64,000 nt of DNA from Candidatus Woesearchaeota archaeon (GCA_016192905.1 JACPTG010000001.1:357005-421004), one strand, 5' to 3'; shown: positions 14,345 to 61,131, counted from the stretch's first letter. Program-made: numbers and translations. Notes: generated from the sequence alone by a model not told the origin.

Positions 14345-14447
14345 GGGGCTGTGGTGTAACTTGGCTATCACACAAGGTTTGGGACACAAATTGGGAACAA
14401 TTGTGTCAGAAGACCTTGTGATCGGGGTTCAAATCCTCGCAGCCCCA
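14345..14447 (+). tRNA. tRNA-Pro (anticodon UGG) with ~30-nt intron in anticodon loop
   Basis: Acceptor GGGGCTG/CAGCCCC. T-arm CGGGG-TTCAAAT-CCTCG. Anticodon stem CAAGG..CCTTG with loop TTTGGG[intron containing GACACAA..TTGTGTC helix]A. Discriminator A. Confidence 0.6.
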
Positions 14448-41350: not shown

Positions 41351-41914
41351 CTAAACCTGCACTATAACGCCCTTAGGCCCTGGGTTCAGGAGCACTGTAC
41401 CTCCTATTTTGTCCCTTTCCCCAAAGTGCTCATGGAAGTGGCCTGAAATGGCCAGGAGCGGCCTCAAACTCCTTATCGCACCTGTTATGCTCCTGTTACC
41501 CCTATACTCCCATAGCAGGTCCAGCCTGGTCCCGAATGGAGGCGCATGCGTGACTATTATCAGGTTCTTTTTTCCCTCAAGATTCCTCATGAACCTTTCA
41601 AGCCCTGCATCCCTCAAGGCAAACCCTCCGCCGCCATAGCCTGCGAACCAAAATCCGCCCAGCTGGAGGGCTTTCCTGTGAATGAATTCAACGTTGCCTT
41701 CGCAGGCCTTTCTAACCTCTTTTTCATCTTCATGGTTGCCGTGTATGAGCAATACCTTTTTCCCCAGCCTGTTCATTGATGCAAGGATGGTTTTCGTTTT
41801 CTTCCCGAAGAAGGTAAAGTCGCCTGCGCACACTATTATGTCTGCAGCTTGCGCCTTCCTCCTGATATGCCCCAAGGCAGCGCCGTGGGTGTCTGTGAAT
41901 GCCAGGATTTTCAT
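41351..41914 (-). CDS. Metallophosphoesterase (YfcE/MJ0936 family)
   Basis: DTHG, GDF, GNHE, GHFH motifs. Confidence 0.8.
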   Translation of the reverse strand: MKILAFTDTHGAALGHIRRKAQAADIIVCAGDFTFFGKKTKTILASMNRLGKKVLLIHGNHEDEKEVRKACEGNVEFIHRKALQLGGFWFAGYGGGGFALRDAGLERFMRNLEGKKNLIIVTHAPPFGTRLDLLWEYRGNRSITGAIRSLRPLLAISGHFHEHFGERDKIGGTVLLNPGPKGVIVQV

Positions 41915-43107: not shown

Positions 43108-44074
43108 CCAGCTCTTCCCTGAGCACGTCCTGCGGAGTGGTCATGTATTTTGCAGAAGGCTTAACCTCTATCCTATGGGCAAGCACAGACACCGCCGCGT
43201 CCCTGATGTCCTCTGCTGTCACTGTATCGCCCGCCCTCAGCAGCGCGTTTGCCTGCGCCCTTTCATACAAGCCTATAGTCGCCCTGACGCTTGGCAGCCT
43301 GGAAAGTTTTTTATTGTTCCTGAGCGCCCTGACAAACGCCACCATTCTTGAGAATAACTGCGGGGGAAAATCTGCCGCTTTTTTCCCCTTTTTCAGCGCA
43401 ATCTGCTCCTCTGTCTCCTGCGCCTCAGGATAGGCCATGTAAACCAGGTCAAACCTGTCTGACAACACCTCAGACAGCTTCTCAGTGCTGGTGTCCTGAG
43501 GGTTCATGGTCCCAAGGAAAATGAAGTCTGCCTCCAAATCAACTGTGTAGCTGCCAATGGTCGCCTTCTTTTCCTCAAGAGCCTGCAGCAGCGCGTTCTG
43601 CACCTTTTCAGGGCACCTGTTCAGCTCGTCAAAGAACAAGACCCCGTTGTTTGCCTTGAATATCTTTCCAGGAGTGAACGCCTCAATTGACGCAGGGCCG
43701 AATCTGATGGCCTTCACAGGGTCTATGTCCCCCAAAAGGTCTTCAGACGTAAGGTCTGGGCTGCCCTGAACCCTCACAAAACGCTGCTCCCCTGAAATTA
43801 CCTTAGTCTTTGTTGTCTTTCCCGCCAGGCATTCAGGGCACACAGCCTTGCCTGGAAGGCAGTTGTACCCGCAATCATTCACAAGCACCTTTGGCAGCAG
43901 CCTTGCCACATTCCTGGCAAGAGTGGTCTTCCCAATCCCAGGCGGCCCGACTATTATTACGTTCCTTCCCATTAACAGGGCTGACTTAAGCTGCCCCTTT
44001 GCCTCTTCCTGGCCAAGTATATCAGGAAACGAGCTCTCCAGCAGCCTTTCATGGAATTCCCTGCCAATCATCAC
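43076..44074 (-). CDS. MoxR-like AAA+ ATPase
   Basis: GQEEAK..VIIVGPPGIGKTTLAR.., Walker B FFDELNR, 332 aa. Confidence 0.85.
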   Translation of the reverse strand: MMIGREFHERLLESSFPDILGQEEAKGQLKSALLMGRNVIIVGPPGIGKTTLARNVARLLPKVLVNDCGYNCLPGKAVCPECLAGKTTKTKVISGEQRFVRVQGSPDLTSEDLLGDIDPVKAIRFGPASIEAFTPGKIFKANNGVLFFDELNRCPEKVQNALLQALEEKKATIGSYTVDLEADFIFLGTMNPQDTSTEKLSEVLSDRFDLVYMAYPEAQETEEQIALKKGKKAADFPPQLFSRMVAFVRALRNNKKLSRLPSVRATIGLYERAQANALLRAGDTVTAEDIRDAAVSVLAHRIEVKPSAKYMTTPQDVLREELDDFLQKGDYR

Positions 44075-44114: not shown

Positions 44115-47100
44115 TTAGTTGCCTTCCTTCTTTCCCTTGGAAACAAAGTACACGACCACTCCAAGGACAGCTATAACAACAATGGAGATGGCTATAAGGT
44201 TCAGGAGCGGAATTCCTGCGACGTTCTGCAGGTTTGGAAGCAGGGAAGGCTGGGCAGATTCGTTTGACAGCTCACCTGAAGGCCCTCCAGACGCAGACTC
44301 ATTAGTCTCCACAACGGCTCCTGTCGGGCCTGCGGTAGTCTCATTCGCAGCAGCAGCCGGACTTGACCTGGCAGCGACCGCGAAAACGCTGAAGCCAGGC
44401 GTTGAAGCCTCATAGTTGACATTTATCGTATCCTCACTGAGTATCTTGGTTGAAAGCTCATTCCACTTGCCCCCGTTGTGCCTGTAAAGGGCAACGTTAT
44501 CCTTCACAAGGCTGTTTGAAGCCAGCCACTTCTTCCCCACACTGAACTGCATCGTGACGGTCTTAACAGAAGATATCGGGAGGTTTGATGTATCAAACTG
44601 CAGGTACTGGTAAACAGTGCCGGGCGCAACGCCTGTGGCTGAAGGAGCGCCGGTAAGCTTGGTCACATCAACCGTAACCGAAGCTGCGACAGTGCCTGTC
44701 TCAATGATAACCTTCCTCACGGCAAAGTCAGACTTGACAATATTCATGACATTCGCGCCAATAGGCAGCTCAGCCCAAACCTTGCTGACCTTCGTGGCAG
44801 CCGCATCCTGATTACCAGGTCCGGCACCACCGCCACTGCTGCTTCCACCGCTGCTACTGCTGCTGGAGCTGGATGAGGAACTGGTTGAGAAGTTAAGCGG
44901 GCCTGTGGTGTTGCAGTTGCCAGCCACGTCACATGAAGTCACGTTGATGTAATAAGCCGTTGATGCAGAAAGGCTGTTTACTGTAACCCTATGACCCTCA
45001 CTATAAGCAGTATCAGTCGTATTCGCAGTAAATGTTGCTGAGGCAATGCCATGGGCAACAGAAGAGTTAGCCCTTTCGTGCGTTGTCCAGGTAATGACTG
45101 CTGAGGTAGTGCTCACAGAAGCTGAAGGCGTCTGGTTGAACACAGGCTTCTCAGTGTCATTAACCCTTAATGTCCTCAAGGCGCTGGTACCCACCTCATT
45201 GCTCTCGCTGTTCAGGCAGCTTATGTTATAGGAATAGGTTCCATTCTGGGGAGTTGAATTCACAATGAACGCGCTCAGGGTGTCATTAACAACAGTGCCA
45301 TTCACAAGCGAAGTTCCGTTAATCCTGAGCGTGCAGGACTGGTTTGAGTCGTTAAGCGTCAGCAGCTTAAACTGAATCCTGGCGTTCTGGACCTGGGAAA
45401 GATTAGAATCCTCTGTAGTGATGTTGATGGTGTCAAACCAGACGTCATCCTTCCAGGAAGACACCCACCCGCTGTTATTGGTGACTGTGAAATTAAAGGT
45501 CACGAAATCAGCCACAGGAACAGACATGTTCACAACAACCCTGAACTGGTGGACTGTCTCGTTCAGCTTTCCTGAATTGACAATCGTGAAGTTATAGTTG
45601 GAAATGTTCGACTCATTGTTCATCGCAACAGGAACCCACTGCGTTAGGTTGCTCAGGTTCAAATAGCTGATATTATAAGATGTGCGGGAAGAAGTGTCAT
45701 TAACCTTCACAGTAAGATTAAGGATTTGCGAATAATTGGTCTGATAATTGGTGACGTTCCAGTACACTGTGCAACCCGGGTAACACTGGTAGACTGTGCG
45801 GTCAGAGCGGAACTCCACTCCAGTGCTGTTCACGCCGTACGCCGAGAAGCCGCCGAGGCCATAAGTTGGAATCCTGACTGTAGTGTAATTTGAGCCCTGC
45901 TTAATCACAGTAATGTTGCCGCTCACATCCACGCAGCCCGAGCCGTTGATGTCACACTTGATAATCCGGTTGCCCACCTGTGAGATGTTTATCACCACAG
46001 AATCAATGCCCAGAATCTGGGCCATCTCCTGCCACTTAGTGCCATTCATGCCCACAAGCATCCTTGCATCTGTTGGCCTGCTGGGAGTTGACTCGTTAAC
46101 CTGAGTGTACTGAATCATGTCAGTCATGTTGATGGATGTTGCCTTGGCGATGTCAACGCCCTCAAACAGGATGTTCCAGCCCAATGTAGAGCCATTAAAA
46201 GAGGCATTGGGATTATCAAACCTCATGGTGGTATTAGAGATGTAGCTGATGTTCCTGATTGAGAAATGTATATACTCAGAGCCGTTGAAATAAGTAAGGT
46301 TAAGCCCGGACATTGACGGGCTGCCCTTGGGGTCAAACAGGATGCCGAAGTTGAAATTAGATGAGCCGCTGGTCTTGGTGGTGAAGTTCAAACAGGCGCT
46401 GGTGGCGCAGTTGCCTGACAGGTCGCAGTTCTTTGTCCTGTAGTAATAAGTCGTGTTTGCCCTTAAAGGAGTGACGCCGGCGGCTGAAATTGAAGTGTTG
46501 TCAAAATTCAGGGAGTGCCACGGCCTGTACCGGTCACTCTCAAAGAGGGCGTCAGTAAGGTTGGCAACAGGAACTGTGCACGCACTTGAAGTATTGTAAA
46601 ACTCCAGCGAAAGGTTTGACAGCTCGCTGGTGCTCTGCCTGAGCATGGCAAACCTGTCAAACTCATCAACTATATTGCTCATAACCCTGGGAGCCGTCTT
46701 GTCATTGGCCAAAAGCGCGGATCTGTTAGCCGAACACCACGGAGCCTGCGCGCAGTCAGCGTCAGCGCAGTTCGCATTTCCATCCTGGTCCTCATCAGGA
46801 GAGCCCTGAGCACAGTCTTCAAAGGGCGTGAACTTGCCGCCGCCAAGCTTGGCAAAGGCAGTGCCGCAGGCCATCGGATTGGACTCGCAGTTCGGCGGGA
46901 TAAACTCCACAGAGCCAGGGGTATAGGTGGCATTAAACAGAGTGTCGTTGGACATGTTCGGAATGGCTGTAAGGTTATCCACAGTGGCCAAATGGTAAAC
47001 AATTGAGTCCTTGGGGTTGCCAATGTCAGACAGCGGAACCACCATTATGGCTGCGCCGAAAGTGCAGATAGGCGTCTGGCTCGGGTTGAAGGGGTTTGTC

Positions 47101-49091
47101 GGAGTTGTGAGCTTGGCAGGGAAAAGGCCGAAGCTGCTCGTGTTCTGCACAAGACACCTGAAAGCCTGCCTCCTCTCAATGGAAGTCGAGGCATTAATGG
47201 ACACATTATAAACGAACTTATACTCTATGCCAGAGACATTTGTGCGGTTTATCATCTCCCAGCAGCCTGTGCTCTGGCTGCCATCAGTGTCAAGGAAGTA
47301 ATAATACAGGCCTGTCCCATTCGTGCTGTTCGGGCAGGCAGCTGAAGCAGAGCCGTTGCCAAGCATGATGCCCATGCCAATTGACTTGCCCATGTCCTTA
47401 AAGCCAAACCCGAGAATGTCCAGATGCTTATGCGAAGCAGGCGGCTCAGTTGTCATATCAGTGTCATCCTTAAGCCTGATGGGAGGGCCTGGCTTGTCAT
47501 CCATGGCCCTTGCTGACTCGAAAAGCATGGCCTTCTCCTTGTTGCAGCTAATGCCTGAACTAGTTTCGGTGCATATGCCAAACACCTTCATTGTGTTAAC
47601 AAACACTGTATCGGTAAGTATCTTCTTGTCAAACTCGCCTCCGCCGCAGAACTTGTCAGTGGAGCAGCCCGGGTCATTGCAGTCAATAAGGCCGTTGCCA
47701 TTGTTATCAGCGCTGTCAAAGCAGGAGTATTCCAAGCTGCCGATGTTCATATAGCAGAAGTTGCTCGTGTTCTCCCAGGCGCAGGCGCCGCCATTTGCAA
47801 CGCCTATGCAGGTCGTGGCATTGCAGCTTGAGCATGAAGCAGTCTCTGTATTAGGCCCGCATGTCTTGATGGTTGTCCCGGCCTCGGCGCAGAATGACTT
47901 CCCGGTAACCGGATCGGAAATCCAAGAGCAGCCGCCCGATGCCCTGCTGTTGGTGCAGGCATTCTGGCCAAAGCAGTCATTGCACTTGGAATCGCAATTG
48001 CCGCCAAACCTGAACTTCGTAAAGTCCTCAATACAGAAGGCGCCTGTCCACTGGCATGTGTTCCTCGCGCCGGTGGCACAATCTCCGGAAGTGGTGCATG
48101 CACCGCAAAAGTCAGAGCAGCCATAATTGCCTGTATCCTCAAAATTAGGCCGGCAATGGCTGAAATCAGACTCCCAGACGCAACTGAAGTTGCCATTAAG
48201 AGCTCCACTCTCACAATAAGACTGGTTGATAAAGCTGCCGCAGCCTGAATCCCTGAACATGAAGCTGTCGTTCCCGCTCTTCTCAAAAAATGCCCCTGTG
48301 CTCATCCCCAAGTCTGAACTGAAATCCTGCCTGTTAGCGCCTATAAGGTCAACAGGGCCTCCAGTGCCCTTTGAAACCACATTATATGTAAGGACCGACC
48401 ACTTAAGCTGGGACTTGTTAATTGCCACCCTGACTGTTGAAGGGTCAGAGTCACACCTAGCGCCTGTCTTGGAGATGTTAACAAAGACAGTCACGTTTGT
48501 CGACCAATTATAGCAGTTGCCAACAGGGCAGGCACCGCTAACCTGGCTGCTGTTGAAAATCAGAAGCGAGCCATTGCCTGTGGAATTAACAATAATATGA
48601 TAATCCGCGCCTGGATAACAGGGGTCGCCCGAAGGCCTGCAGCCAGTGTTGACATTGCCGTCAGCGTCAAACTCAATCTCAAACTCCAGTTGGCTGCTTC
48701 CAGAGCAAAAAGATGCATTGGAAAAATTCTTGCCAGTAATCTTCCAGGCAATGAAATTGGAATCCTGCGCCACCCATGTAGAGCGAAGGTCCCAGGTGGG
48801 CGCACAAAAAGACGAGCCCATGCCTCCACAGCTGAAAAAGCGGTCATACTTGCCATCGCCATTGCTTGCATAAGGAAGCCCTGAAAAATCAAACGTAGCC
48901 CAGTCCAACGTGCCCTGATTGGCAGGGGACAAGTTAAAAACGGCCTGAGGAGGAACGTCTGAATCTGAAAGGCTCAGGATGAGATTAGAGCCCACCACCA
49001 AGACAGTGAGCATTAACACAACAATGAAAACCAGCCTGAGGCTATTAATTACACCTCTCCTAAACACACCCTTTTTCATCAAAATCCTCAA
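44115..49091 (-). CDS. Giant surface protein (~1655 aa) with Cys-rich region, FN3-like and PGF-pre-PGF domains, C-terminal TM anchor
   Basis: Signal/anchor MKKGVFRRGVINSLRLVFIVVLMLTVLVVGS. Dozens of N-x-S/T sequons. Poly-Ser/Gly linker. ..STPGFSVFAVAA.. pre-PGF signature. Terminal IPLLNLIAISIVVIAVLGVVVYFVSKGKKEGN. Confidence 0.8.
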   Translation of the reverse strand: MRILMKKGVFRRGVINSLRLVFIVVLMLTVLVVGSNLILSLSDSDVPPQAVFNLSPANQGTLDWATFDFSGLPYASNGDGKYDRFFSCGGMGSSFCAPTWDLRSTWVAQDSNFIAWKITGKNFSNASFCSGSSQLEFEIEFDADGNVNTGCRPSGDPCYPGADYHIIVNSTGNGSLLIFNSSQVSGACPVGNCYNWSTNVTVFVNISKTGARCDSDPSTVRVAINKSQLKWSVLTYNVVSKGTGGPVDLIGANRQDFSSDLGMSTGAFFEKSGNDSFMFRDSGCGSFINQSYCESGALNGNFSCVWESDFSHCRPNFEDTGNYGCSDFCGACTTSGDCATGARNTCQWTGAFCIEDFTKFRFGGNCDSKCNDCFGQNACTNSRASGGCSWISDPVTGKSFCAEAGTTIKTCGPNTETASCSSCNATTCIGVANGGACAWENTSNFCYMNIGSLEYSCFDSADNNGNGLIDCNDPGCSTDKFCGGGEFDKKILTDTVFVNTMKVFGICTETSSGISCNKEKAMLFESARAMDDKPGPPIRLKDDTDMTTEPPASHKHLDILGFGFKDMGKSIGMGIMLGNGSASAACPNSTNGTGLYYYFLDTDGSQSTGCWEMINRTNVSGIEYKFVYNVSINASTSIERRQAFRCLVQNTSSFGLFPAKLTTPTNPFNPSQTPICTFGAAIMVVPLSDIGNPKDSIVYHLATVDNLTAIPNMSNDTLFNATYTPGSVEFIPPNCESNPMACGTAFAKLGGGKFTPFEDCAQGSPDEDQDGNANCADADCAQAPWCSANRSALLANDKTAPRVMSNIVDEFDRFAMLRQSTSELSNLSLEFYNTSSACTVPVANLTDALFESDRYRPWHSLNFDNTSISAAGVTPLRANTTYYYRTKNCDLSGNCATSACLNFTTKTSGSSNFNFGILFDPKGSPSMSGLNLTYFNGSEYIHFSIRNISYISNTTMRFDNPNASFNGSTLGWNILFEGVDIAKATSINMTDMIQYTQVNESTPSRPTDARMLVGMNGTKWQEMAQILGIDSVVINISQVGNRIIKCDINGSGCVDVSGNITVIKQGSNYTTVRIPTYGLGGFSAYGVNSTGVEFRSDRTVYQCYPGCTVYWNVTNYQTNYSQILNLTVKVNDTSSRTSYNISYLNLSNLTQWVPVAMNNESNISNYNFTIVNSGKLNETVHQFRVVVNMSVPVADFVTFNFTVTNNSGWVSSWKDDVWFDTINITTEDSNLSQVQNARIQFKLLTLNDSNQSCTLRINGTSLVNGTVVNDTLSAFIVNSTPQNGTYSYNISCLNSESNEVGTSALRTLRVNDTEKPVFNQTPSASVSTTSAVITWTTHERANSSVAHGIASATFTANTTDTAYSEGHRVTVNSLSASTAYYINVTSCDVAGNCNTTGPLNFSTSSSSSSSSSSSGGSSSGGGAGPGNQDAAATKVSKVWAELPIGANVMNIVKSDFAVRKVIIETGTVAASVTVDVTKLTGAPSATGVAPGTVYQYLQFDTSNLPISSVKTVTMQFSVGKKWLASNSLVKDNVALYRHNGGKWNELSTKILSEDTINVNYEASTPGFSVFAVAARSSPAAAANETTAGPTGAVVETNESASGGPSGELSNESAQPSLLPNLQNVAGIPLLNLIAISIVVIAVLGVVVYFVSKGKKEGN

Positions 49092-49120: not shown

Positions 49121-52100
49121 TTAAAGTTTTCGCTGAAGCCTGACCCGCAGCAGGAAATAAAGGCCTGCGGCAAGAAGGACAGCGACAAGCAGAACCGCGG
49201 CAAGGACAGTGAGGCTGATGCCCTGCTGCTGCGGGGGCTGGCCAGATGGCATCTCCTGGGCAGGGGTTTGGTTGGCGGCAGGATTCTGAAATGACTCCGG
49301 TTCCTCCTCTGGAGTTCTGTTGGAAAGCGGAGCAGGACTTGCAGGCTCAGCCACACCGGCAACGGCAAAATAGGAAAAGCCAGGGCTTGAGGCAGAGAAT
49401 GAGTAAAACGACTGGTTCTCACCTATACCCGATGTAGGCAGCTGATGCCAACTGCCTTCCGAAAGCCTGTAAAGGTAAACCGAGCCAAAGCGGCCTGCAA
49501 AAGAGCTGTTAACCCTGAAATCAATGCTCACAGATGCAAAGTCAGAGTCAGGCAAGGAAGGGGTAGAGGTAAGCCTGAAGTAGGCGTATGAAGCGTGGGA
49601 TGCAAAGGCGCTTTCAATGGCCAAAGGAGGGTCTGTAACCGGCTCAGCCACCAGAGTCAGGGCATCCACGGGCCGGTTGGTGAAGAAGGAAACCAGCGAA
49701 ACAGGCATCTGCGGGCTGCTTACCTTCATAGTGTTAAGCCTGCCAGCGGAAATGCCCGCGAAAACATGGCTTACCTTAGCAGACTGGCTGGGGGTGGTTG
49801 AGCCTCCTCCGCCACCGCCGCCACCGCCGCTTGAGCTGCCGGATGAGCAGGCAAGGTCAACGCCATCACAATTCTGGTCAATGCCATCACCGCAAACCTC
49901 GGTGGCGCCAGGATTAATGCCTGAAGAGGAGTCATGGCAGTCAGTGCCGTTCCCGCAGCCAGAAGCATAAAAGCCGTCAGCATCACTATCAGGGCACTGC
50001 TGCCTGGCTGCGGAAAAGCGAAGCCCAGCAACTTTGAAGTAAGTCGTGTTGCCGGTGCTGTTAACAAGCGAACATGAATAAGAGGAGTTCTGGCCCGGGC
50101 AGCTTATCAAGGTCTCGTTCTGGCCATTGCACGAAACGCTAATGTTGTAAAGGCTTGACACATCAGCGTCCTTCACGCAGACAGTGCCAATGGTGCCATT
50201 CACAGCAAGCAGGCTAACATTCTTGGTAAGGTTGTACTGCAAAGCCAAACCGCGGACAAGGACTGCACCAAAAGTGCTGGCAGCAGGCTGCACCTCATAA
50301 GTGAAGTTAAGGTTAAGCGTGGAATTCGTAAAGTTCCAGAAAAACTCAAGAATGCTCACCGAGCTGTTGGAGACGTTCACAAAGAAAGTCCCGTTAAACC
50401 TCTGCGAAAGGTTGCTGCTGCTGTTCACTGAGATGTTAATAGAGCCTGCAAGCATGTTAGTCACGTTTATGAAGGAATTGTTTGTCCCCAGAAGATAATC
50501 CTCACTGTCGGGGATGCCATCATTGTCGTCATCAGAGTCATAAATGTCGGGGACACCGTCAAGGTCGCTGTCAATCTGGTCAAAAACGGTAATGTTGACC
50601 TGCATTGAAGAAGAGGCATTGCCATCAGTGACATTAACCAGAACTGCGAAAATCCCTGAACTGGCCAGATTCGTCCTCCAGCTGAAGTTGCCGCTTGTGT
50701 TCTGAGCAAACCTTGTGTCGTTGACCGAATAGTTGAAGAAGCCATTGTCAGGGTCTGAGGCTGATACGGTAAAGTTCACCCAGTCAGTTTCATTCACGCT
50801 CATGTTCGCCTGCTGGGCAATTTCAGGCGGGTCGTTCTGCGGGGAAATGTTCACCAGAATTACTTCGGAAATATTGGCTGTCCCGTCCCAAGCGGTGATG
50901 TTCAACGGGACAGTGCCGTTGAAGTTGGAGGCGGGAGTGAAATTCACGGTAGTGTTCTGCCCCTGCGGGACTGCTGCGCCTGTAACATTGAACCGGGAGT
51001 CATTAACATAATACCTGACAGTGTCATTGTCAACATCCGACGCTGAAATGTTAAAGAACAATGCCGCGTCCTCAAGCATGGACTGGTTTGACGGCGAGAA
51101 ATTCCAGTAAAGCACATCATTAACCGGGGTGACGTTAACGAAGACACGCCCGGAAATGTTGACCACGCCGTCGGATGCGGTTATGTTGATGAACACCACG
51201 CCGTTGAAGTTGGAAGCAGGAGTGAAATTAAAAGTCGTATTTACACCCTGCGGGACTGCTGCGCCTGTAACATTGAACCGGGAGTCATTAACATAATACC
51301 TGATTGTGTTATTGTCAAAGTCTGACGCGGAAACGTTGAATACGAGCGAGGAATCCTCCTGAATGGAATAATTCTGCGGGGTGAAATTCCAGAGAGGAGA
51401 GGTGTTGTTCACGTCGAGCCGCCACTCGTAATAAGCCGATGAATTCCAGTCTGAAACCAAAACCGAGACATTATAGCTGCCAAGCGTGGTGTTGGTGAAG
51501 TTGAAAGAGGTACTGTTGAAGAAGGCGGACTGGTTGGAATTGTTAAGGAACCAGGCTATTACGAGCAAATCATTGTGCGCATCCGTATAGTTGAACGAGA
51601 AAGTCTGGTTATTCGGCGAGCTTATCGTGAAGTTCCGGGTTGAGGGGCCGGTTGTGAGGACAGGAGCTGAGTTGTTGCACAGGCTTGAGTTAATGCCGTG
51701 AAGGACAGAAAAGGAATAGCACAACTGCCCCCTATTCGGCGTGCCGTCGCTGAGGTTCGTGTTATTGTCGTCCATTACAAGCAAATCCTCAAGGAACGCG
51801 TTGAAAGTCTGGCTCTGCACCTTCATGGCCCTGATGACAAGGTCATCTGACTTTGTATTGCCAACTCTCAGCCTAAGCTCCCACATCGCGCCTGAAAATG
51901 ACTGGCTGTCAGCATGCACCTGGGTGAATGAAGTCGGCTTCTGCACGCTGTTGTTCAGATTACGAAGGCAGGGAGTGACAGAATCCCACTCATCGGCAAG
52001 GCACGGGTTGCCATTCAGTGTGGCTGCAAAATAATCCGCAAGAGCCTCATTCATCGCGCCCGGCTGGCCTGAAGTCATAGCCGCAGAATAAATCTGGTCA

Positions 52101-53734
52101 ACAGCAGCATGAGTGTACTCGTGATAAACCACATCGCTGCCAAGCGAAGTCGCATTGCAGCCGCCGCCAGCAGGAGTGAAATGCACAGTCCCTGTTGAAG
52201 GCTGATAAAACGCATTGCAGTTGCTGCCAAGCGATGTGTCCTGCACGAGGACGAGCATCTCATAGTTTAACCCTGATACATTAAACGGAGTGCCATTGGT
52301 AAAAAAGTCATGAACCCTGGTGGCGTGGTAAAAGACGTTGGACAGCTCCAGCGAATAGCTCGGGTCAGACCCATTCCAGTTCCAGCTATGAGAGCCGTTT
52401 AATGTTGAGTTGACCTCTGCGGTATGGTTGGCGTCATAGGTTGCAGCGCGGTCAGCAACCCTAATCCATGGACTCCTAAAGTTGGTAATTACGGTGGCGT
52501 TGCCTGAAAAGCCCGAAATGTTATAATGGCCTGTGTAATTCGTGTTTGTGAAGTTGATGAAGGTATCATTTGAATGCGAATAGCCTGCAAGGGACCAGTT
52601 TGAGGTTGAGTTGAAATCCTCTGAAAAAACAATTCCTGAATTCGTTACAATGGATACGTTATCCACAAAAAAGCCGTCCTCAACCACAGAAGTATCATAA
52701 GTTGTGGTGAAGTTAATGTAAACAGACCTGTTAATGTAATTGTTCAGGCTGTAATTCCTAAGAACCCAGCCAAGCTGCCTGCCTGTGAAAGTTTCCAGCG
52801 TCTGCCATGAACTGCCATTAGCGGAAACCCTCGCGTAAGAATAGTCTGAGTTGTTCTCAAGCTCGTACCTGGCCATGAAGGTAATGTTGACATCTGTATA
52901 GCCGGAAAGGTTAATTGAACGATTAGTTCCTGCTGCGCTCACCAGGTTGTTTGCCTTCCCTGAGTAAATTACGGAATTGTTGGAAGGCTGGTAAACCCTG
53001 ACTGTGAGGTTGGTGAAGTTAACCAGGGTGCGGGAATTCTTCCAGTGCTCAGGGTAAACCATTCCTGTGACACGACCGTAAATGTCGCCAAAGACTATGT
53101 TGTTGTACTTCCTGATGATGCCTCCACCATGCGCATCCACGTAATACGCCCAGGCCCCACGCAGCCTCTCGTCAAGCGGCAGCTGGACCTTCCAGGCGAG
53201 GTGATAGCCTGAGTCGGCTGCTGTGACAAGCAAAGTCGTATTAAGCGGAGTGATGCTGACTCCAGCGTCCTGAACTGCCAGCTCAGCAGCCTTTTCAGCT
53301 GAAATCCCTGGAACAGGGTCAAGGCTGATACCCCTCAGGAAGTTGTTATTAACGGTTACAAGCTTATCATCAACGTAAACCAGGACCACAAACCCGTCCT
53401 CAACAGGAACGCCCCTGTAAACCTGCTCGTAAGAGGCGTACCACACGCCGCTCTGATGCCTATACAACGGGCTGTCACGCTCAGCCTGCCTCAAGGCAAG
53501 CGCATCCTCATCAATCTTCAGAAAGCGCTCATTGCGCTCCATAAAGCCCCGGGCAACGCTATCAACATTACCGGCGGTTATGTGCCTGCCAACATCCAGC
53601 GAGCCCACCAGCCTCTCCGGAGCTCCTCCCCTATAATCAACCTTAAAGGCCTGCAGATTATCAGAGCGGCCCGCAGCCAAGGCTACAAAAGCAGAAGCGG
53701 ACATAACAAAAAGAACAGCAAAAAGCCACCTCAT
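49121..53734 (-). CDS. Giant surface metalloprotease (1537 aa): propeptide-like N-terminus, M4 thermolysin-like domain, Ig-like and TSP3-like repeats, PGF-pre-PGF domain, TM anchor
   Basis: VVYHEYTHAAVD..GAMNEALADYF (HExxH + NEAxxD). Tandem ..RYYVNDSRFNVTGAAVPQG.NTT.NFTPASNFNG.. repeats. DSDLDGVPDIYDSDDDNDGIPDSED. ..SPGFSYFAVAG... C-terminal ISLTVLAAVLLVAVLLAAGLYFLL. Confidence 0.75.
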   Translation of the reverse strand: MRWLFAVLFVMSASAFVALAAGRSDNLQAFKVDYRGGAPERLVGSLDVGRHITAGNVDSVARGFMERNERFLKIDEDALALRQAERDSPLYRHQSGVWYASYEQVYRGVPVEDGFVVLVYVDDKLVTVNNNFLRGISLDPVPGISAEKAAELAVQDAGVSITPLNTTLLVTAADSGYHLAWKVQLPLDERLRGAWAYYVDAHGGGIIRKYNNIVFGDIYGRVTGMVYPEHWKNSRTLVNFTNLTVRVYQPSNNSVIYSGKANNLVSAAGTNRSINLSGYTDVNITFMARYELENNSDYSYARVSANGSSWQTLETFTGRQLGWVLRNYSLNNYINRSVYINFTTTYDTSVVEDGFFVDNVSIVTNSGIVFSEDFNSTSNWSLAGYSHSNDTFINFTNTNYTGHYNISGFSGNATVITNFRSPWIRVADRAATYDANHTAEVNSTLNGSHSWNWNGSDPSYSLELSNVFYHATRVHDFFTNGTPFNVSGLNYEMLVLVQDTSLGSNCNAFYQPSTGTVHFTPAGGGCNATSLGSDVVYHEYTHAAVDQIYSAAMTSGQPGAMNEALADYFAATLNGNPCLADEWDSVTPCLRNLNNSVQKPTSFTQVHADSQSFSGAMWELRLRVGNTKSDDLVIRAMKVQSQTFNAFLEDLLVMDDNNTNLSDGTPNRGQLCYSFSVLHGINSSLCNNSAPVLTTGPSTRNFTISSPNNQTFSFNYTDAHNDLLVIAWFLNNSNQSAFFNSTSFNFTNTTLGSYNVSVLVSDWNSSAYYEWRLDVNNTSPLWNFTPQNYSIQEDSSLVFNVSASDFDNNTIRYYVNDSRFNVTGAAVPQGVNTTFNFTPASNFNGVVFINITASDGVVNISGRVFVNVTPVNDVLYWNFSPSNQSMLEDAALFFNISASDVDNDTVRYYVNDSRFNVTGAAVPQGQNTTVNFTPASNFNGTVPLNITAWDGTANISEVILVNISPQNDPPEIAQQANMSVNETDWVNFTVSASDPDNGFFNYSVNDTRFAQNTSGNFSWRTNLASSGIFAVLVNVTDGNASSSMQVNITVFDQIDSDLDGVPDIYDSDDDNDGIPDSEDYLLGTNNSFINVTNMLAGSINISVNSSSNLSQRFNGTFFVNVSNSSVSILEFFWNFTNSTLNLNFTYEVQPAASTFGAVLVRGLALQYNLTKNVSLLAVNGTIGTVCVKDADVSSLYNISVSCNGQNETLISCPGQNSSYSCSLVNSTGNTTYFKVAGLRFSAARQQCPDSDADGFYASGCGNGTDCHDSSSGINPGATEVCGDGIDQNCDGVDLACSSGSSSGGGGGGGGGSTTPSQSAKVSHVFAGISAGRLNTMKVSSPQMPVSLVSFFTNRPVDALTLVAEPVTDPPLAIESAFASHASYAYFRLTSTPSLPDSDFASVSIDFRVNSSFAGRFGSVYLYRLSEGSWHQLPTSGIGENQSFYSFSASSPGFSYFAVAGVAEPASPAPLSNRTPEEEPESFQNPAANQTPAQEMPSGQPPQQQGISLTVLAAVLLVAVLLAAGLYFLLRVRLQRKL

Positions 53735-53969: not shown

Positions 53970-54602
53970 TTATTTCTTCTTCCTAAGCAGGAAGAAAGCA
54001 GCAAGCCCTGCAAGCACAATCACCACAACCACCAGAATCCCTGCGGTGGGAATTCCTGCTGCCGGCTTTTCAGGCGGAGCGGGCTGAGGAGTAACAGGCT
54101 GAGGCTGTGCCGCTGCCTTCTTGCAGTCAGCAGCGCAGCTTGACTCTGACTCATCACCCTCGCATACATTATCCCCACAGGCAATGTTCCTAACAGTAAC
54201 GGACTTCTGGTCGCGGCTCTGGCCTGAAGCATCAAACCACACAGCATCAAAATTAGCTGAGCCAACAGCGCCTGCCACAGCAGTGTACTTAATCTGAGCG
54301 CTTGAGCCTGTTGGCGTAAAGCTCCACCCATGCCTGTTGCCATCAGCAGAGCGGTGGTTAATCTTATCCTTAGACTCCTGCGAGCCTGAAACCTCCCAAG
54401 TGCTGAACTTCCAGTCATCAGGAAGGTCATCCTCAAGCGTGAAAAGCTTGCCAGCCTCTGCGCTGCCAATGCTAAAAGTCACTGTGACTGTCTCGCCAGG
54501 GCTCACCCTGTCCGGAATGCTACGGCTCACAGAAGCGGCAAAGACAGCCGATGAAAGTGCAAGAAGAACAGCAAAAAACATCAAATACCTGAAGGCTTTC
54601 AT
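53970..54602 (-). CDS. Secreted surface protein with C-terminal TM anchor
   Basis: Signal MKAFRYLMFFAVLLALSSAVFAAS. CGDNVCEGDESESSCAADC motif. Pro-rich stalk. ..ILVVVVIVLAGLAAFFLLRKKK. Confidence 0.55.
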   Translation of the reverse strand: MKAFRYLMFFAVLLALSSAVFAASVSRSIPDRVSPGETVTVTFSIGSAEAGKLFTLEDDLPDDWKFSTWEVSGSQESKDKINHRSADGNRHGWSFTPTGSSAQIKYTAVAGAVGSANFDAVWFDASGQSRDQKSVTVRNIACGDNVCEGDESESSCAADCKKAAAQPQPVTPQPAPPEKPAAGIPTAGILVVVVIVLAGLAAFFLLRKKK

Positions 54603-55863: not shown

Positions 55864-58800
55864 TCAGCTCAGCGTCCTGCAGCATAATCTGAACTTTGTG
55901 CTGTTTCCTGTGATGTTCAGCTGATACTGCTTATCATTAGTATTATTAATGTACTTCAGGTCGCTTCCAACCCAATCAGTCCTGCTGAATGTCTTCCAGC
56001 CAGTATCAGTACCATCAGTGTTATAATAAACCACGTTATAGTTGGCACCCAGCCCTCCAATGTTTGTCAATATGAGGGATATATTCCAGTTCTGAGTTGT
56101 GCTTGTGTTCCATCCCCAGGACTGCAGTTGTGATGTCTGATGGATAGTAAGGGCAGGACTTGTCTGTAGGTCAGCACTCTCATACCAAGGCTTAATGTAG
56201 TTCTTGAACCTTGATGTGTTTGCCACAACATTGTTGCCCGCCAGATCCTTCGCTGCAGCCCCATAAAGGGTAATATTCACGCCCACAGAGTCACCCTGCT
56301 GTATCTTCCGCACAGCAGCATCCTGGCCGCTGGTCAGCTTTATGAATATCGTGCTGCTGTTGGCAGGGACAAGGGTTGAATTCCCACCTCCCAGGTTTGC
56401 AACTCCGTCAGCAATGCTTCCATCAGTGTAGTTAAGGCTTACGCTGGTGAGCGTAACGCCTGTAACGTTGCTGTCCATCAGCTCATTAAAGCCAAGCGAA
56501 AGCAGCCTGGAAGACTCATTGTAAGTCCAGTTGGCCAAAATCGGGGCATTAGCGTCAACATGGATTGTGAAGTTTGTGGCATTGAATGCTGTGTTTGAAG
56601 CTGAATCATTGCAGAAGACATTCCACGCATAGTCCCCATCAACCCCGAACGTGAGGCTGAAGTTGTTGTTGCCGCCGGCCCCGCCACCTGACACGCTGAG
56701 GTTCGTGCCATTTGAGACCCAGGCATTGCCGCTTGAAGAGTTGGTGTAAATGCTGCAGTTCTGCGGGTTGGCATCCAGTACGGTATAGTTGAAGGTAACG
56801 GTAGCCCCCCTTCTTGAGTCACTCGAAGGGGCGACGAGCGCAACCCTTGTAACATTGACATCAACTGTGATTGAAAGGTTGCTCAGGTTTGAGTTTCCAG
56901 ACCAGTCAGTGACATTGACTGTGAAGTTAAGCAGGCCCTCAGCATAAGCGCTTACACTCACAGTCACGTTAAAGACCCCGCTCAGGTGAGCACTTCCAGC
57001 AAGCAGCGTGACATTAGTCATCCTGACAGTCGCATTGTAATTGCCTGTAGGCGCTGAACTGTTAATCCAGTAAACACTTACATTCTTGATGCCTGAAGCA
57101 GTGTCATTGGTTGAGATGTTTATGAGCAGGTTGTCATTCTCAAATCCGCCAGTCTGAGCAATAACGAACTTCAGGGTTGGCGCAAGATTATCAACCATTA
57201 TGGATATCTTCTCGGCAGTCTGCTGGTTTCCAGACCAGTCAGTCGCATTGACAGTAATGTTCACCATGCCATTCGCAAACTGGGTTGTGACGACTGTTGA
57301 ATTGAAATAACCAACAGTGCCATTGACTCCATCAGGGTTGCTGACATTGCTCATGGCCATAAGCGGGCCTTTCTGGGTTGTGCCTGCACTCTGGTTCTCC
57401 CAGTACCAGAACACAAACCTTATGCCTGAAACAGTGTCATTCACAGAGGCGTTCAGAAGGAGGACTGAGCCTGACTGGTTAGTCCCGTTAGCAGGAGAGA
57501 CTATTCCCACAGTTGGGGCGGTGCTGTCCACGATAAGCGTAACGTTTGAAAGCGCAGTGTTGCCAGCCCAGTCAGTCGCGTTGACAGTTATGTTTATTGC
57601 GCCTGCGGCAAAGGTGCTGACATCAACCGTAGCGTTGAATGTGCCGTAAGTGTTTGCAGTAACAGCCAAGGCAGTGACATTCGTCATCCTCTGAAGCGGG
57701 CCAGAGCCAGAACCGTTAATCCAATACCACGAAACATTCCTCAGCCTGCTGAAGCTGTCATTCACAGTGAAGTTAAGGACTGTTGTTGAGGTAACGTTAA
57801 TTCCTGTCAGGCTTATCCTTGTAAGGTTTGGAGCGACATTATCAATGGTAACTGATACGTTCGCGCCGGTATCATTTACATTCGCAGCCCAATCAGTGAC
57901 GTTAATGCTGATGAATGTAACGCCATTATCCAAAGTGGAAGGCACAGTTGCATTGAAGTTTCCAATGCTGCCATTAGGAGCAATGGGATTGCTGACATTG
58001 CTCATTCCGGTTGACGGGCCCCTGCTTGCATTAGCCCAGTACCAGAACACATACCTGATGCCTGAACCGGTGTCATTCACTGACGTGTTCAGCAGGAAGC
58101 TGCCTGACAGGTTGGCGCCTGAAACAGGATTAAGTATTGCGATGCTCGCATTCGTCCTGTCAACCCTAATCGTGAAGTTGGTAAGGTTTGCAGCGCCACC
58201 CCAGTCAGTGACATTCACTGTAATGTTCAACAAGCCGTCAGGGAAGCCTAAAGTATCTATAGTATAATTGAAAGTACTGTTCCTGACCGCAGTATCAGCG
58301 CCAACACTTACATTCGTCATCCTCTGAAGCGGGCCAGAGCCAGAACCGTTAATCCAATACCACGAAACATTCCTGACCAGGCTTCCGCCGTCACTTGCCG
58401 TGACATTCAACAGGAATATGTCTGATTGGTTGGATACAGCAATTACGGGCGAGAGTATTGTGCCATTAGGCCTTGTATTGTCAACCAGGACTGTTATATT
58501 CGTGACAGAGTAATTGCTCGTTCCTGCAACGTCTGTCACGTTAACAGTAAGATTCAAAGACGTGCCCTCGGCATAGGCTGAAACGTCCACTGACACTGAA
58601 TAGAAGTTTGTGCCAGCGGTCCTTGACATCGCAGTGGCAGGACCTAAACTTGAGCTGCCATTGGACTCATTCGCCCACTGATAAGTGGCCAGCCCCACTC
58701 CGCCGCCATCATCACTCAAGGTAACATTCAGGGTAATGGTTGCTGACACATTGCCGCCACTGGTCGGGGTGTTGGTCGCGTTGTAAAACGGCGTCTTTGT

Positions 58801-61131
58801 ATCAATAGTGACATTAAGCGGTGTATTCTCAGTCCCATTCGCCGCCCTGAGATTTGGCGTCCCGTCAGTTGCATTGATGATGAACTCAACAACATCGCCA
58901 TGGACAGCTGAAAGCTCAGAGGCAGCAGCAACATTTATGCTGGTGTTGCATATGTAAACAGGAGCGCTTGAGGGGAACAAAGAGCAGTTCATCACCTTAT
59001 TCCTCGTCCATGAGGAGAGACCAGGGGAATACACCCTGTAGAAAATTGTGGCATTCCGGCTAACATTAAAGTTTAGCTCGGTAACATTCACCGACCAAAT
59101 CCTCAGCCCAGTCCTGATGAATGACTGGCTTGCGGGGCTTGCATTGGTGATAATCGGCGGAGACTCGTCTGAAGTTATATTGACAGTAAAGTTTGAGAGC
59201 CTATAGTTTCCTGCCCAGTCGCTTGCATTAATGGTAATGTTGAGGAGGCCGTTGGCGAATGCGGAAGCGTCAATAGTAACGTTGTAGTCACCTGTCTGGC
59301 TGACGCCCTCAGCACTCCAGTCCGCGGACATGTTGCTGAGCAGCTGGTCACCTGTGAACTGCGCCTTGCTTCCTGAACTGTTAATCCAGTACCAAGAAAC
59401 GTTGGCTATGCCTGAGCCTGTATCGTTAACCGAGACATTCACGAAAAAGTAGCCTGTAACATTCCTTGTAATATTCACCTGCCGTACATTAGTCGGGAAA
59501 CGCCTTGACTCATAAGTTATGTTTACAATCCCAGCCACGGTCGGCGCTGTCTTGTCAACCACAAAGGTAAGGTTCTGCAAGACAGTGTTGCCAGCCCAGT
59601 CAGTTGCGTTGATTGTGATATTCTGAAGGCCATCGGCAAAGGCAGAGGCATCAACAGTGGCGTTGTAATGACCCCAGTTGTTTCCTGTGCCAGCGGCATT
59701 TGTAACATTAGTCATTATATTGGAAGGGCCATACCCTGAGCCATTAATCCAATACCAGGTCACGTTCCTAATTCCTGAACTATTGGTTGCAACAGCCCCT
59801 GTCTTGTTGGCCCAGACAGTAAAGTTAACCAGGATTGTGCTGCTGACATTAGTCGTATTGGCAGTGATGAGAGGATTTTGCCTCTGCAGGACAGGAGCCT
59901 TGTTATCAACCAGAAGGGTGATATTGATGCTCGTATTCACATTCGAGGCATTGTCAGTAACGTTTATTGATATATTGACAAGGCCGTCAATCCACGTTGA
60001 TGTGTCAAAGTCAACCCAGTAATGATGGGAAGCAGGCTGCCTTACCATGCTCTCAAACTCTCCTATATTCCTGGATGTGCCTCCAGTGCCATTCACCCAT
60101 GTGGCTGAAGCGTTATACACTCCGCCGCCGTCATCACTGGTGGTAATGTTAAGCGTGAACCTGCCTGACACGTTCAGGACAGTGCCTGCTGTGTTCGGGT
60201 TATCGTAGGCCAAGCTGGCGCCTGACGCTGATTTTGTGAGGTTAACCCTGGTGGAGTTAATAGTCGGGGTCCTGGTGTCCAGAGTCACTGTAAAGACCGG
60301 CGTATTATTGGTCCGGTTCCCGGCGTCAGAGAGGTTGAAATTATACTCAACCACATTTCCATGCGCCCCTGAAAGGCCAAGAACTGCCTGGACATTAACT
60401 TCAAGAGAGCAGTTATGGGCTGCAGTGTGAATGGCCGGGATGAAATTACAACTGGTGGCGTTGGACACGTAAGTGTCGGTTCCCTGCCTCCTGTAATAGA
60501 CAGTAACGTTGTTCGCATTCACCAGGTTATGCTCTGTAACGTTAATAGCGAAGATTACATTAGTCAATGAACTTACGTACGTGGCATTGTTCCAACTCTG
60601 GTTAACAAAAACAGGAGCGTAGCTGTCCACCTGGAACCTCTTGTATGACTGGTTCCGCGACTCATTCACAGTACCGTGCGACGCATTCGCCGCGACCGAG
60701 CAGAACCAATAGAATGCCTCTCCGCGGACAGGACCTATGCCTGAAAGATTAAACTGGACTTTCTTGCCGTTGCCTGAGCCATTGAAAATATTAGTGGCAT
60801 TGGACATGTCACTAACTGTCTGGTTCCTCAGGAATGTGCCAGTCATGTTGGTCCACAACGAAACATTTGTCAGGTTATCCGGACCAAAATTCTCATCAGA
60901 GTCCAACTTCACTTCACAGAAGAGCGAAATTGAATTGTTAGTGCTGTATGATGAGTTTGCAGGCGACTCAACATCAACCGCTGCAAAAATCAAAACTCCA
61001 AAGGCGAGAAGGCTTAAAAGCGATATTACAAGTATAAAAGGCCAGATGCTCCTTACTCCTGCAGACTTAAGATTCCTGAAACTCACAGCCCCAGAAACCA
61101 ACCGTCCACCCCTCTTTTCACCCCAAGGCAT
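55864..61131 (-). CDS. Giant surface protein (1755 aa) built from >10 tandem ~100-aa Ig-like repeats rich in N-glycosylation sequons
   Basis: N-terminal anchor IWPFILVISLLSLLAFGVLIFAAV. Recurring NVSWYWINGSG..MTNV..FNATVD...NITVNATDWAGN modules. Exact 60-bp DNA repeats (57686-57745 / 58312-58371). Confidence 0.8.
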   Translation of the reverse strand: MPWGEKRGGRLVSGAVSFRNLKSAGVRSIWPFILVISLLSLLAFGVLIFAAVDVESPANSSYSTNNSISLFCEVKLDSDENFGPDNLTNVSLWTNMTGTFLRNQTVSDMSNATNIFNGSGNGKKVQFNLSGIGPVRGEAFYWFCSVAANASHGTVNESRNQSYKRFQVDSYAPVFVNQSWNNATYVSSLTNVIFAINVTEHNLVNANNVTVYYRRQGTDTYVSNATSCNFIPAIHTAAHNCSLEVNVQAVLGLSGAHGNVVEYNFNLSDAGNRTNNTPVFTVTLDTRTPTINSTRVNLTKSASGASLAYDNPNTAGTVLNVSGRFTLNITTSDDGGGVYNASATWVNGTGGTSRNIGEFESMVRQPASHHYWVDFDTSTWIDGLVNISINVTDNASNVNTSINITLLVDNKAPVLQRQNPLITANTTNVSSTILVNFTVWANKTGAVATNSSGIRNVTWYWINGSGYGPSNIMTNVTNAAGTGNNWGHYNATVDASAFADGLQNITINATDWAGNTVLQNLTFVVDKTAPTVAGIVNITYESRRFPTNVRQVNITRNVTGYFFVNVSVNDTGSGIANVSWYWINSSGSKAQFTGDQLLSNMSADWSAEGVSQTGDYNVTIDASAFANGLLNITINASDWAGNYRLSNFTVNITSDESPPIITNASPASQSFIRTGLRIWSVNVTELNFNVSRNATIFYRVYSPGLSSWTRNKVMNCSLFPSSAPVYICNTSINVAAASELSAVHGDVVEFIINATDGTPNLRAANGTENTPLNVTIDTKTPFYNATNTPTSGGNVSATITLNVTLSDDGGGVGLATYQWANESNGSSSLGPATAMSRTAGTNFYSVSVDVSAYAEGTSLNLTVNVTDVAGTSNYSVTNITVLVDNTRPNGTILSPVIAVSNQSDIFLLNVTASDGGSLVRNVSWYWINGSGSGPLQRMTNVSVGADTAVRNSTFNYTIDTLGFPDGLLNITVNVTDWGGAANLTNFTIRVDRTNASIAILNPVSGANLSGSFLLNTSVNDTGSGIRYVFWYWANASRGPSTGMSNVSNPIAPNGSIGNFNATVPSTLDNGVTFISINVTDWAANVNDTGANVSVTIDNVAPNLTRISLTGINVTSTTVLNFTVNDSFSRLRNVSWYWINGSGSGPLQRMTNVTALAVTANTYGTFNATVDVSTFAAGAINITVNATDWAGNTALSNVTLIVDSTAPTVGIVSPANGTNQSGSVLLLNASVNDTVSGIRFVFWYWENQSAGTTQKGPLMAMSNVSNPDGVNGTVGYFNSTVVTTQFANGMVNITVNATDWSGNQQTAEKISIMVDNLAPTLKFVIAQTGGFENDNLLINISTNDTASGIKNVSVYWINSSAPTGNYNATVRMTNVTLLAGSAHLSGVFNVTVSVSAYAEGLLNFTVNVTDWSGNSNLSNLSITVDVNVTRVALVAPSSDSRRGATVTFNYTVLDANPQNCSIYTNSSSGNAWVSNGTNLSVSGGGAGGNNNFSLTFGVDGDYAWNVFCNDSASNTAFNATNFTIHVDANAPILANWTYNESSRLLSLGFNELMDSNVTGVTLTSVSLNYTDGSIADGVANLGGGNSTLVPANSSTIFIKLTSGQDAAVRKIQQGDSVGVNITLYGAAAKDLAGNNVVANTSRFKNYIKPWYESADLQTSPALTIHQTSQLQSWGWNTSTTQNWNISLILTNIGGLGANYNVVYYNTDGTDTGWKTFSRTDWVGSDLKYINNTNDKQYQLNITGNSTKFRLCCRTLS

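Follow-up and report, generated by a model that had tools for sequence, protein, structure and literature searches.

The thermolysin family (M4), which includes pseudolysin and vibriolysin MCP-02, consists of free secreted zinc enzymes with a two-lobed beta/alpha fold, an HExxH motif followed by a glutamate ligand in NExxxD, and further active-site residues that are numbered in thermolysin as Asn112-Ala113, Asp170, Arg203 and His231. These enzymes carry an FTP + PepSY propeptide, and propeptides of this kind are established to act in M4 autoprocessing (Gao et al. 2010; PMC2955107). Fungalysin (M36) is a member of the same superfamily, and the FTP propeptide is common to both families. NCBIfam NF038112 (myxosortase-dependent M36) describes very large proteases of the bacterial surface that end in a sorting signal, while InhA (M6; structures 4yu5/4yu6) combines a zinc protease and a propeptide with a MAM-like jelly-roll domain. 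Here we describe a protease gene located at 49121..53734 (minus strand, ATG start, 1537 amino acids (aa)) in a window of 64,000 nucleotides (nt) from GCA_016192905.1 (JACPTG010000001.1:357005-421004). The source of the gene is a DPANN archaeon, and the NCBI label of the genome is 'Candidatus Woesearchaeota'.

We read the product as a secreted, surface-tethered zinc endopeptidase of the thermolysin superfamily (M4/M36) that is made as a zymogen by this DPANN archaeon, with a probability of about 0.78. The open reading frame (ORF) had been put forward in a sequence-only reading of the window; it was recovered with its full 1537 aa, and all the motif strings quoted for it were found in the translation. 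Its features are more than chance because a profile of the family matched prothermolysin with E values down to 1e-30 and because two orthologues, about 90% identical, are under purifying selection. With the M4 enzymes the protein shares the HExxH motif, the glutamate of NExxxD, equivalents of the residues listed above, the FTP + PepSY propeptide and the two-lobed fold. It differs from them in having a C-terminal lobe with about 20 fewer residues, a conserved Cys506-Cys526 pair, a MAM insert of 140 aa and a stalk of 850 aa, predicted to be glycosylated, which ends in a transmembrane (TM) anchor.

Catalytic domain, propeptide and family assignment

The thermolysin-like catalytic domain comprises a beta-rich N-subdomain and a helical C-subdomain and covers approximately aa 392-690 (51665..52561; this and all other features of the gene are on the minus strand). 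It was delineated from profile matches, Foldseek matches and the ratio of nonsynonymous to synonymous substitution rates (dN/dS). The first beta-strands of the mature protease are found at about aa 216-251 (GDIYGRVTGMVYPEHW...LTVRVYQPS; 52982..53089), 5' of the MAM insertion, and were modelled with a predicted local distance difference test score (pLDDT) of ~92. Conservation was followed in an alignment of 36 closer relatives (A4), where H538, E539, H542, E563 and D567 were observed to be invariant and C506, N507, A508, C526, R591 and H607 nearly so. Within the first strands, G220 was invariant and V222 and G224 were nearly invariant.

The HEYTH motif (aa 538-542; 52109..52123) contains the predicted zinc ligands H538 and H542 together with the predicted general base E539 and aligns with HELTH. 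The NEALAD motif (aa 562-567; 52034..52051) contributes the third ligand E563 as well as D567, which correspond to thermolysin E166 and D170. This stretch reads NEALADYF from aa 562, and GAMNEALAD was aligned to thermolysin GAINEAISD, with alanine at the position of Ser169. H607 (51914..51916) is the counterpart of thermolysin H231, a transition-state residue, and R591, the counterpart of R203, is located 16 residues upstream of it. The profile alignment places 'gevHddS' on 'GGVHINS' (the protein itself has VHADS) and 'clRnl' on 'SLRSM', and it also gives N507-A508 as the equivalents of thermolysin Asn112-Ala113. The ligand glutamate follows the first histidine by 25 residues and the second by 21, where the corresponding distances in thermolysin are 24 and 20. 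The sequence-only reading had likened this site to that of thermolysin; the third ligand and the NExxxD motif can indeed be aligned to thermolysin, and the HExxH...NExxxD pattern is invariant across the relatives.

When A4 was used as a profile against PDB sequences, the strongest match was to prothermolysin (5a3y; E 1.2e-30 for the whole chain and 1.7e-7 for the catalytic stretch), followed by neutral protease (1npc; 6e-12), gentlyase (4b52; 4e-11), aureolysin (1bqb; 4.5e-11) and thermolysin (4e-8). Fungalysin was matched with E 2e-5 over only ~55 positions around the zinc site. Assignment to M36 in place of M4 has nevertheless to be weighed, as NCBI labels several bacterial relatives in this way, with names such as 'M36 family metallopeptidase' and 'myxosortase-dependent M36' among those from Bacteroidota and Myxococcota. 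At E<0.001, Pfam M36 was matched by 14 of the 36 relatives, slightly more than the 12 that matched M4 (the counts for M4_C, FTP and PepSY were 12, 10 and 9). An earlier profile dominated by bacterial relatives (A2) also placed the two families about equal (aureolysin 1.9e-7, fungalysin 2.3e-6), and the C-terminal 'EVHxDSxIxSGALWDL' block resembles the M36 consensus. The archaeal-type profile A4, however, clearly ranks the M4 catalytic domains (6e-12 to 4e-8) ahead of fungalysin. In M36 the spacing from the second histidine to the glutamate is longer than in thermolysin, whereas the 21 residues found here are near thermolysin's 20. The match of the propeptide to prothermolysin and the top Foldseek matches of the catalytic domain, both given below, likewise point to M4, so that an M36 identity appears unlikely. 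We conclude that the catalytic domain represents a divergent clade within the thermolysin/fungalysin superfamily, nearer to M4 than to M36.

The predicted structure agrees with this assignment. AlphaFold2 (AF2) with the 36 closer relatives gave a pLDDT of 87.8, with the propeptide, MAM and catalytic modules each near 90; this model supersedes one made with bacterial relatives only, where the pLDDT was 75.6 and the MAM region was not resolved (~46). The two-lobed thermolysin fold is seen in the model at a pLDDT of ~90 over aa 392-690. In a Foldseek search against the PDB, the best matches of the catalytic domain were all M4 enzymes, with aureolysin (E 8.6e-11, target-normalised TM-score 0.65, 307 columns) followed by gentlyase (8e-8). 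A confident model was thus obtained, whose catalytic part is like aureolysin and whose propeptide is like that of vibriolysin. The M4 identity proposed in the sequence-only reading therefore stands at the level of profile and fold, where M4 structures were matched at 1e-30 to 1e-8, but does not extend to the single sequence, which remains under the Pfam cut-offs.

The catalytic module is preceded by a predicted signal peptide (~aa 1-22, MRWLFAVLFVMSASAFVALAAG; 53669..53734), read from the sequence and seen as a lone helix at aa 2-21 of the AF2 model. The M4-type propeptide, with an FTP motif and a PepSY-like fold, covers about aa 23-215 (53090..53668) and was recognised by Pfam, profile and Foldseek. 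Pfam FTP at aa 99-132 reached 21.0 bits, which equals the cut-off, when the segment was scanned alone and was weak in the full-length scan. The family profile matched the prothermolysin propeptide with E 4.7e-22, and Foldseek returned the propeptides of vibriolysin MCP-02 (3nqz_A, E 3e-6) and fungalysin (4k90_B, 9e-6) as well as YpeB/YpmB, which bears out the FTP/PepSY resemblance that had been noted for the N-terminal segment. Only one N-x-S/T sequon is present in aa 1-237 (nt 53026-53734), compared with 5-12 per 100 aa in the MAM, catalytic and Ig regions. The paucity of sequons in this part would be consistent with a propeptide that is discarded and not glycosylated.

Several observations weigh against the reading of the protein as a tethered, active endopeptidase. 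In Pfam scans of the catalytic segment alone, the scores were 19.2 bits for M4 (cut-off 22.4), 16.3 for M4_C (24.4) and 14.7 for M36 (23.3), and a scan of the full-length protein matched no protease family; because the single sequence is under the gathering scores, formal membership in M4 comes through profile and fold only. The position of Tyr157, a residue that the family consensus LPYxxExGAMNE keeps nine residues before the ligand glutamate, is occupied by Thr554 in this protein (AMTSGQPGAMNE), where Y550 is a candidate stand-in, and by serine in its best match, which is 64% identical. The Asp226 region of thermolysin is deleted and cannot be aligned: this stretch of thermolysin forms an insertion relative to the family profile, and at the position two residues before the histidine the family has glutamate and the protein has Gln605. 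Two further points concern the context of the enzyme. An amino-acid permease gene (61950-63101) is found 8 kb from the protease on the opposite strand, and the mode of anchoring is uncertain because no PGF-CTERM signal is detectable, the PGF motif being absent at the C-terminus and TIGR04126 giving no match in the NCBIfam scan.

The loss of the Tyr157 equivalent here and in the closest relative and the deletion of the Asp226 region would also fit a protease domain that is dead or vestigial, in a protein whose role is limited to adhesion or to scaffolding of the envelope. Adhesin-like domains (Ig, cadherin-like and MAM) indeed make up two thirds of the chain. Substitution of Tyr157 in thermolysin-like proteases lowers activity without abolishing it. 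The three zinc ligands, the general base, D567, R591 and H607, on the other hand, are kept in this protein and in its orthologues, which are encoded with ~90% nucleotide identity in two other assemblies (GTDB representatives L001 and L002). We calculated dN/dS per region by the Nei-Gojobori method between the window gene and the orthologues. The catalytic domain gave 0.05 with 97% aa identity, the lowest value among the divergent regions of more than 100 aa, followed by the MAM domain (0.08-0.10), the propeptide (0.11), the Ig-like repeats (0.11), the pre-PGF region (0.29) and the C-terminal tail (0.46), which is the fastest-evolving part. A value of 0.03 was found for aa 216-237, which has only 22 codons, and aa 1051-1245 showed zero amino-acid changes between two assemblies. 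The residues of the zinc site are identical in all three gene copies, and this identity together with the low dN/dS speaks against decay to a pseudo-enzyme. The propeptide was also retained under constraint, although only an enzyme that has to be kept latent would need one, and we therefore regard a dead protease domain as highly improbable.

A nested MAM domain and the protease family

The most distinctive feature of the protein is a MAM domain of the InhA-like type, 140-150 aa in length, which the layout in the sequence-only reading did not include. It covers about aa 252-391 (52562..52981), within a hairpin of the N-terminal beta-region, and was identified by Pfam, profile, Foldseek and alignment. 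Pfam InhA-like_MAM (PF20773) matched aa 238-388 with E 6.5e-14 and 52.3 bits against a cut-off of 26.9. A phmmer comparison with InhA (4yu5) aligned aa 242-391 to InhA 432-590 with E 1.6e-4, and the family profile matched InhA with E 5e-24 over the MAM domain only. In Foldseek, the domain matched InhA2 (4yu5, E 1e-12), and the MAM domains of meprin-beta were found too.

The location of the insert can be read from A4. In relatives without a MAM domain, the sequence is contiguous from '...VNFSNxNVxxxQ' to 'xxxxTNxSGxYNISG...', and at exactly this place ~140 extra residues are present in the window protein and in the relatives P0074, P0077 and P0084. The alignment with the prothermolysin propeptide stops at about aa 213, so that the strands of aa 216-251 are already part of the mature enzyme, whose first hairpin holds the MAM domain. 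At the level of the alignment and of the predicted model, the MAM domain is thus nested within the mature protease. In InhA, the homologous domain is located at 432-590 of 756 residues, whereas here it is near the mature N-terminus, and in motif and family assignment the catalytic domain of InhA is unrelated to that of the window protein.

Three of the relatives, P0074 (MBI4438754.1), P0081 (MCX9081206.1) and P0242 (MBI2143708.1), carry the NCBI name 'immune inhibitor A', and taken together with the MAM matches to InhA-like_MAM and to the InhA2 structure this would suggest an InhA-type M6 metallopeptidase. The likeness to InhA is, however, limited to the MAM domain. Pfam Peptidase_M6 gave no match to the catalytic segment even at E<=10, and the motif HEYTHAAVDQI has no glycine at +3 and no histidine or aspartate at +6, unlike HExxHxxGxxD. 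The third ligand is a glutamate 21 residues further on, in the manner of a gluzincin, and the fold and profile of the catalytic domain match M4, which speaks against an unrelated HExxH family. An M6/InhA identity is effectively refuted, and we give it next to no weight. The 'immune inhibitor A' names evidently come from the MAM domain alone, because the catalytic domains of the three proteins are thermolysin-like.

An exhaustive phmmer search with aa 210-700 returned 3579 proteins at E<=1e-3, of which 140 were at E<=1e-30, typically 900-2000 aa in length. Word-indexed searches with aa 1-700 and aa 431-700 had given only 1 and 10 hits, mostly Bacteroidota fragments together with one myxobacterial-type protein, and the orphan status that these suggested was overturned by the exhaustive search. 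The best match was P0074, to which the protein is 64% identical. The order propeptide-MAM-catalytic was observed in ~20 of the top 150 clusters; most of the other clusters have propeptide and catalytic domain without MAM, and a few have a MAM domain after the catalytic domain. Source names exist for a minority of the relatives, and all the named relatives with a nested MAM domain are archaeal. These are from Ca. Woesearchaeota (MBI4438754.1 and MBI2143708.1), Altiarchaeales (ODS36745.1), Methanococcoides orientis and M. methylutens (WP_233084405.1 and WP_052402690.1) and Ca. Methanoperedens (MCX9081206.1). One relative without MAM is labelled Nanoarchaeota (MEK6871337.1), and the archaeal pre-PGF domain was found in several further relatives. 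The sequence-only reading had called a giant cell-anchored M4 protease uncommon in archaea, and this view does not hold in light of the number of relatives and the range of archaeal groups among those with names.

In a neighbour-joining tree of 144 catalytic domains, which is crude, has no support values and does not resolve the number of origins of the MAM insertion, the nested-MAM proteins (n=20) did not form one clade: nine formed a pure clade and the rest were scattered. Public names for the family are heterogeneous. IMG names relatives 'Zn-dependent metalloprotease', and we noticed that another relative is named 'subtilisin-like proprotein convertase' after its P-domain. Literature searches on archaeal M4/M36 enzymes and on DPANN surface proteases returned nothing specific, and no paper on the protease family was found. 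The protease is a member of a sizeable archaeal family that is uncharacterised and in part wrongly annotated.

Two relatives illustrate how the module is used elsewhere. P0084 of Methanococcoides orientis (WP_233084405.1) shares the propeptide-MAM-catalytic module, with 36% identity over aa 210-690, as well as the pre-PGF domain. It also contains S-layer duplication domains, matched by TIGR01567 with 361 bits, and has a PGF motif close to its C-terminus, and NCBI names it 'S-layer protein domain-containing protein'. In their place, the window protein has tandem Ig-like repeats, the MopE-type module and a G-I-S + TM end in which PGF-CTERM is not detectable. P0084 is thus an S-layer-type protein with the protease as one of its parts, and it comes from a cultured methanogen that would be tractable for experiments. 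Great size, many domains and a C-terminal anchor are also seen in the myxobacterial relatives; P0001 carries a MAM domain too, which follows the catalytic domain and is not inside it. NF038112 gave no match to the window protein, whose anchor is of the archaeal pre-PGF type and not MYXO-CTERM, and it is on Pfam M36 that some of its relatives score.

Stalk, anchor and genomic neighbourhood

The catalytic domain is followed by four Ig/cadherin-like domains (aa 693-1053; 50576..51658), where Pfam Big_9 and Cadherin_5 (aa 785-956) were matched and where sequons are densest (12.4 per 100 aa). Two tandem repeats of 95 aa (aa 787-881 and aa 882-976; 50807-51376) are identical at 61 of 95 positions, and the 13-mer RYYVNDSRFNVTG occurs in both, at aa 812 and aa 907, exactly 95 residues apart. 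The NCBIfam tandem-95 repeat model matched two stretches with E 4.4e-19, in agreement with the Ig-like repeats of ~95 aa that had been proposed earlier. An Asp-rich DxDxDG element at aa 1054-1080 (50495..50575), with DSDLDGVPDIYDSDDDNDGIPDSED at aa 1055, is TSP3-like and forms a putative Ca2+ site. Of the calcium repeats of TSP3 type that had been proposed, the Asp-rich string itself is present, but it is a single stretch of ~25 aa for which Pfam TSP_3 gave E 5.6e-4 and 20 bits (cut-off 25), only when a 42-aa segment was scanned alone and not in the full-length scan.

The next region (aa 1081-1245; 50000..50494) is beta-rich, predicted to be glycosylated, and has four cysteines near its end. 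It is common to P0074, P0087 and P0163, has 100% aa identity to the L001 orthologue and matched no family in a Pfam scan. It leads to a Cys-rich MopE-type module (aa 1246-1297; 49844..49999), where Pfam Cu-binding_MopE matched aa 1265-1292 with E 2.6e-9 in the whole protein and 1.7e-11 for the segment alone, and the Cys-rich string covers aa 1249-1291. A Ser/Gly linker (aa 1298-1315, with poly-Gly at aa 1303) and the PGF-pre-PGF domain (aa 1331-1460) follow at 49355..49843; the latter was recognised by TIGR04213 (PGF_pre_PGF) with 40.3 bits against a cut-off of 28. The chain ends with a Pro/Gln/Glu-rich stalk (aa 1463-1505) and a G-I-S motif, TM helix and basic tail (aa 1506-1537), together at 49124..49348 and read from the sequence, so that the C-terminus is ...QQGISLTVLAAVLLVAVLLAAGLYFLLRVRLQRKL; the stop codon is at 49121-49123. 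The order of Cys-rich module, Gly linker, pre-PGF domain and hydrophobic C-terminal helix is the one that the sequence-only reading had described. In total, the protein contains 101 N-x-S/T sequons, compared with 28.4 +/- 4.7 in composition-preserving shuffles.

We noticed that a G-I-(P/S) motif, a hydrophobic helix and a basic tail also end neighbouring envelope proteins, giving three such C-termini with the protease included (QQGISLTVLAAV, NVAGIPLLNLIAIS and AAGIPTAGILVVV, at 49124-49219, 44115-44270 and 53970-54080, all in minus-strand genes), none of which matched the PGF-CTERM model. From its sequence, this ending may represent the lineage's own equivalent of the PGF-CTERM sorting signal.

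The protease gene is part of a co-directional run of sequon-rich envelope genes, and the pre-PGF domain is found in two of its neighbours. In the direction of the run, a 1755-aa Ig-repeat protein (55864-61131, minus strand; Big_13/Big_3_3 Ig repeats, DUF7743, 8.7 sequons per 100 aa), a 414-aa pre-PGF protein and a 210-aa TM protein precede the protease, which has a GGTG Shine-Dalgarno-like element, noted by eye, ~7 nt 5' of its ATG. After it, ~42 nt on with the start as read here, comes a 1658-aa Cys-rich protein (44115-49091, minus strand) with acidic double-disulfide repeats, a pre-PGF domain scoring 77 bits and 4.9 sequons per 100 aa. This giant gene is also conserved in L001, where its product has 1660 aa. 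The envelope-protein cluster is followed by a MoxR ATPase + VWA pair (41911-44074).

Other genes of the window include those for aIF5B, Trm1, a GTPase and a permease, whose products match exactly MBI3051302.1 and further proteins recorded for 'Candidatus Woesearchaeota archaeon' (locus tags HYY74_). The ORF at 8934-9947 (plus strand) encodes an M23-type peptidoglycan-peptidase-like domain with weak NCBIfam matches to ShyA and Pgp3-type enzymes. M23 peptidases of the extracellular kind are on record for other genomes of DPANN archaea (PMC8561730). A tRNA of 103 nt at 14345-14447 (plus strand) was found by Rfam with 48.9 bits, where ARAGORN reported none in the whole window, and it is probably an intron-containing archaeal tRNA.

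The DNA of L001 and L002 that is ~90% identical to the window is labelled 'Methanosarcinales archaeon' (CAZDCW010000036.1) and 'Candidatus Iainarchaeum archaeon' (JACQPB010000026.1), and of these two labels and the Woesearchaeota label of the window at least two must be wrong or imprecise. The nucleotide identity to L001 was observed to be a mosaic, with 88-94% over aa 1-700, 77-84% over the Ig repeats (aa 700-940), 96-100% over aa 942-1360 (100% for aa 1062-1181) and 68-77% in the C-terminal tail. Such uneven divergence suggests recombination within the gene between lineages.

Proposed function and biological meaning

On the reading preferred here, that of a tethered thermolysin-like zymogen, the protein would be exported through a Sec signal peptide, as predicted from its N-terminus. 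By analogy to M4 zymogens, the FTP/PepSY propeptide (aa 23-215) may act as a folding chaperone and inhibitor, and the enzyme would cut it off near aa 215-225 by autoprocessing of the kind known from thermolysin and vibriolysin. From the conserved residues, zinc is expected to be held by H538, H542 and E563, with E539 activating the water, H607 stabilising the transition state, and R591, N507 and A508 holding the substrate backbone. The MAM domain probably offers an additional surface for the binding of a substrate or partner. The stalk, with its Ig repeats, Asp-rich element, disulfide module, Gly linker, pre-PGF domain and Pro/Gln part, would space the protease off the membrane to which the TM helix tethers it, and the predicted dense N-glycosylation may shield the mature part from proteolysis. 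Speculatively, the enzyme could degrade external or host-surface proteins to supply peptides and amino acids, or it could remodel cell contacts. A more specific idea is that the nested-MAM proteases, whose named members are all archaeal, form a lineage carried on pre-PGF/S-layer stalks. In host-dependent DPANN archaea such as this one, the MAM-guided and glycan-shielded protease would then serve for attack or feeding at cell contacts, by cutting S-layer or other surface proteins of a host or adjacent cell; we consider this a doubtful proposal.

The enzyme class, the propeptide logic and the surface tethering were already known, the last from the giant anchored bacterial M36 proteases of NF038112, and current understanding is not overturned by a protein whose class and anchoring are familiar. 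What is new is that an M4-like zymogen module is recognised in a sizeable archaeal envelope family, that a MAM domain is nested inside it, and that this identity does not match the public names. The assignment gives a functional label to proteins that are named 'immune inhibitor A', 'S-layer protein domain-containing', 'subtilisin-like proprotein convertase' or 'hypothetical'. The MAM-in-protease architecture is undescribed for M4/M36 and could inform how accessory domains steer substrate choice. Given the small genomes of DPANN archaea and their reliance on other cells, a broad endopeptidase tethered to the surface is a concrete and testable candidate for nutrient acquisition or for the remodelling of host surfaces.

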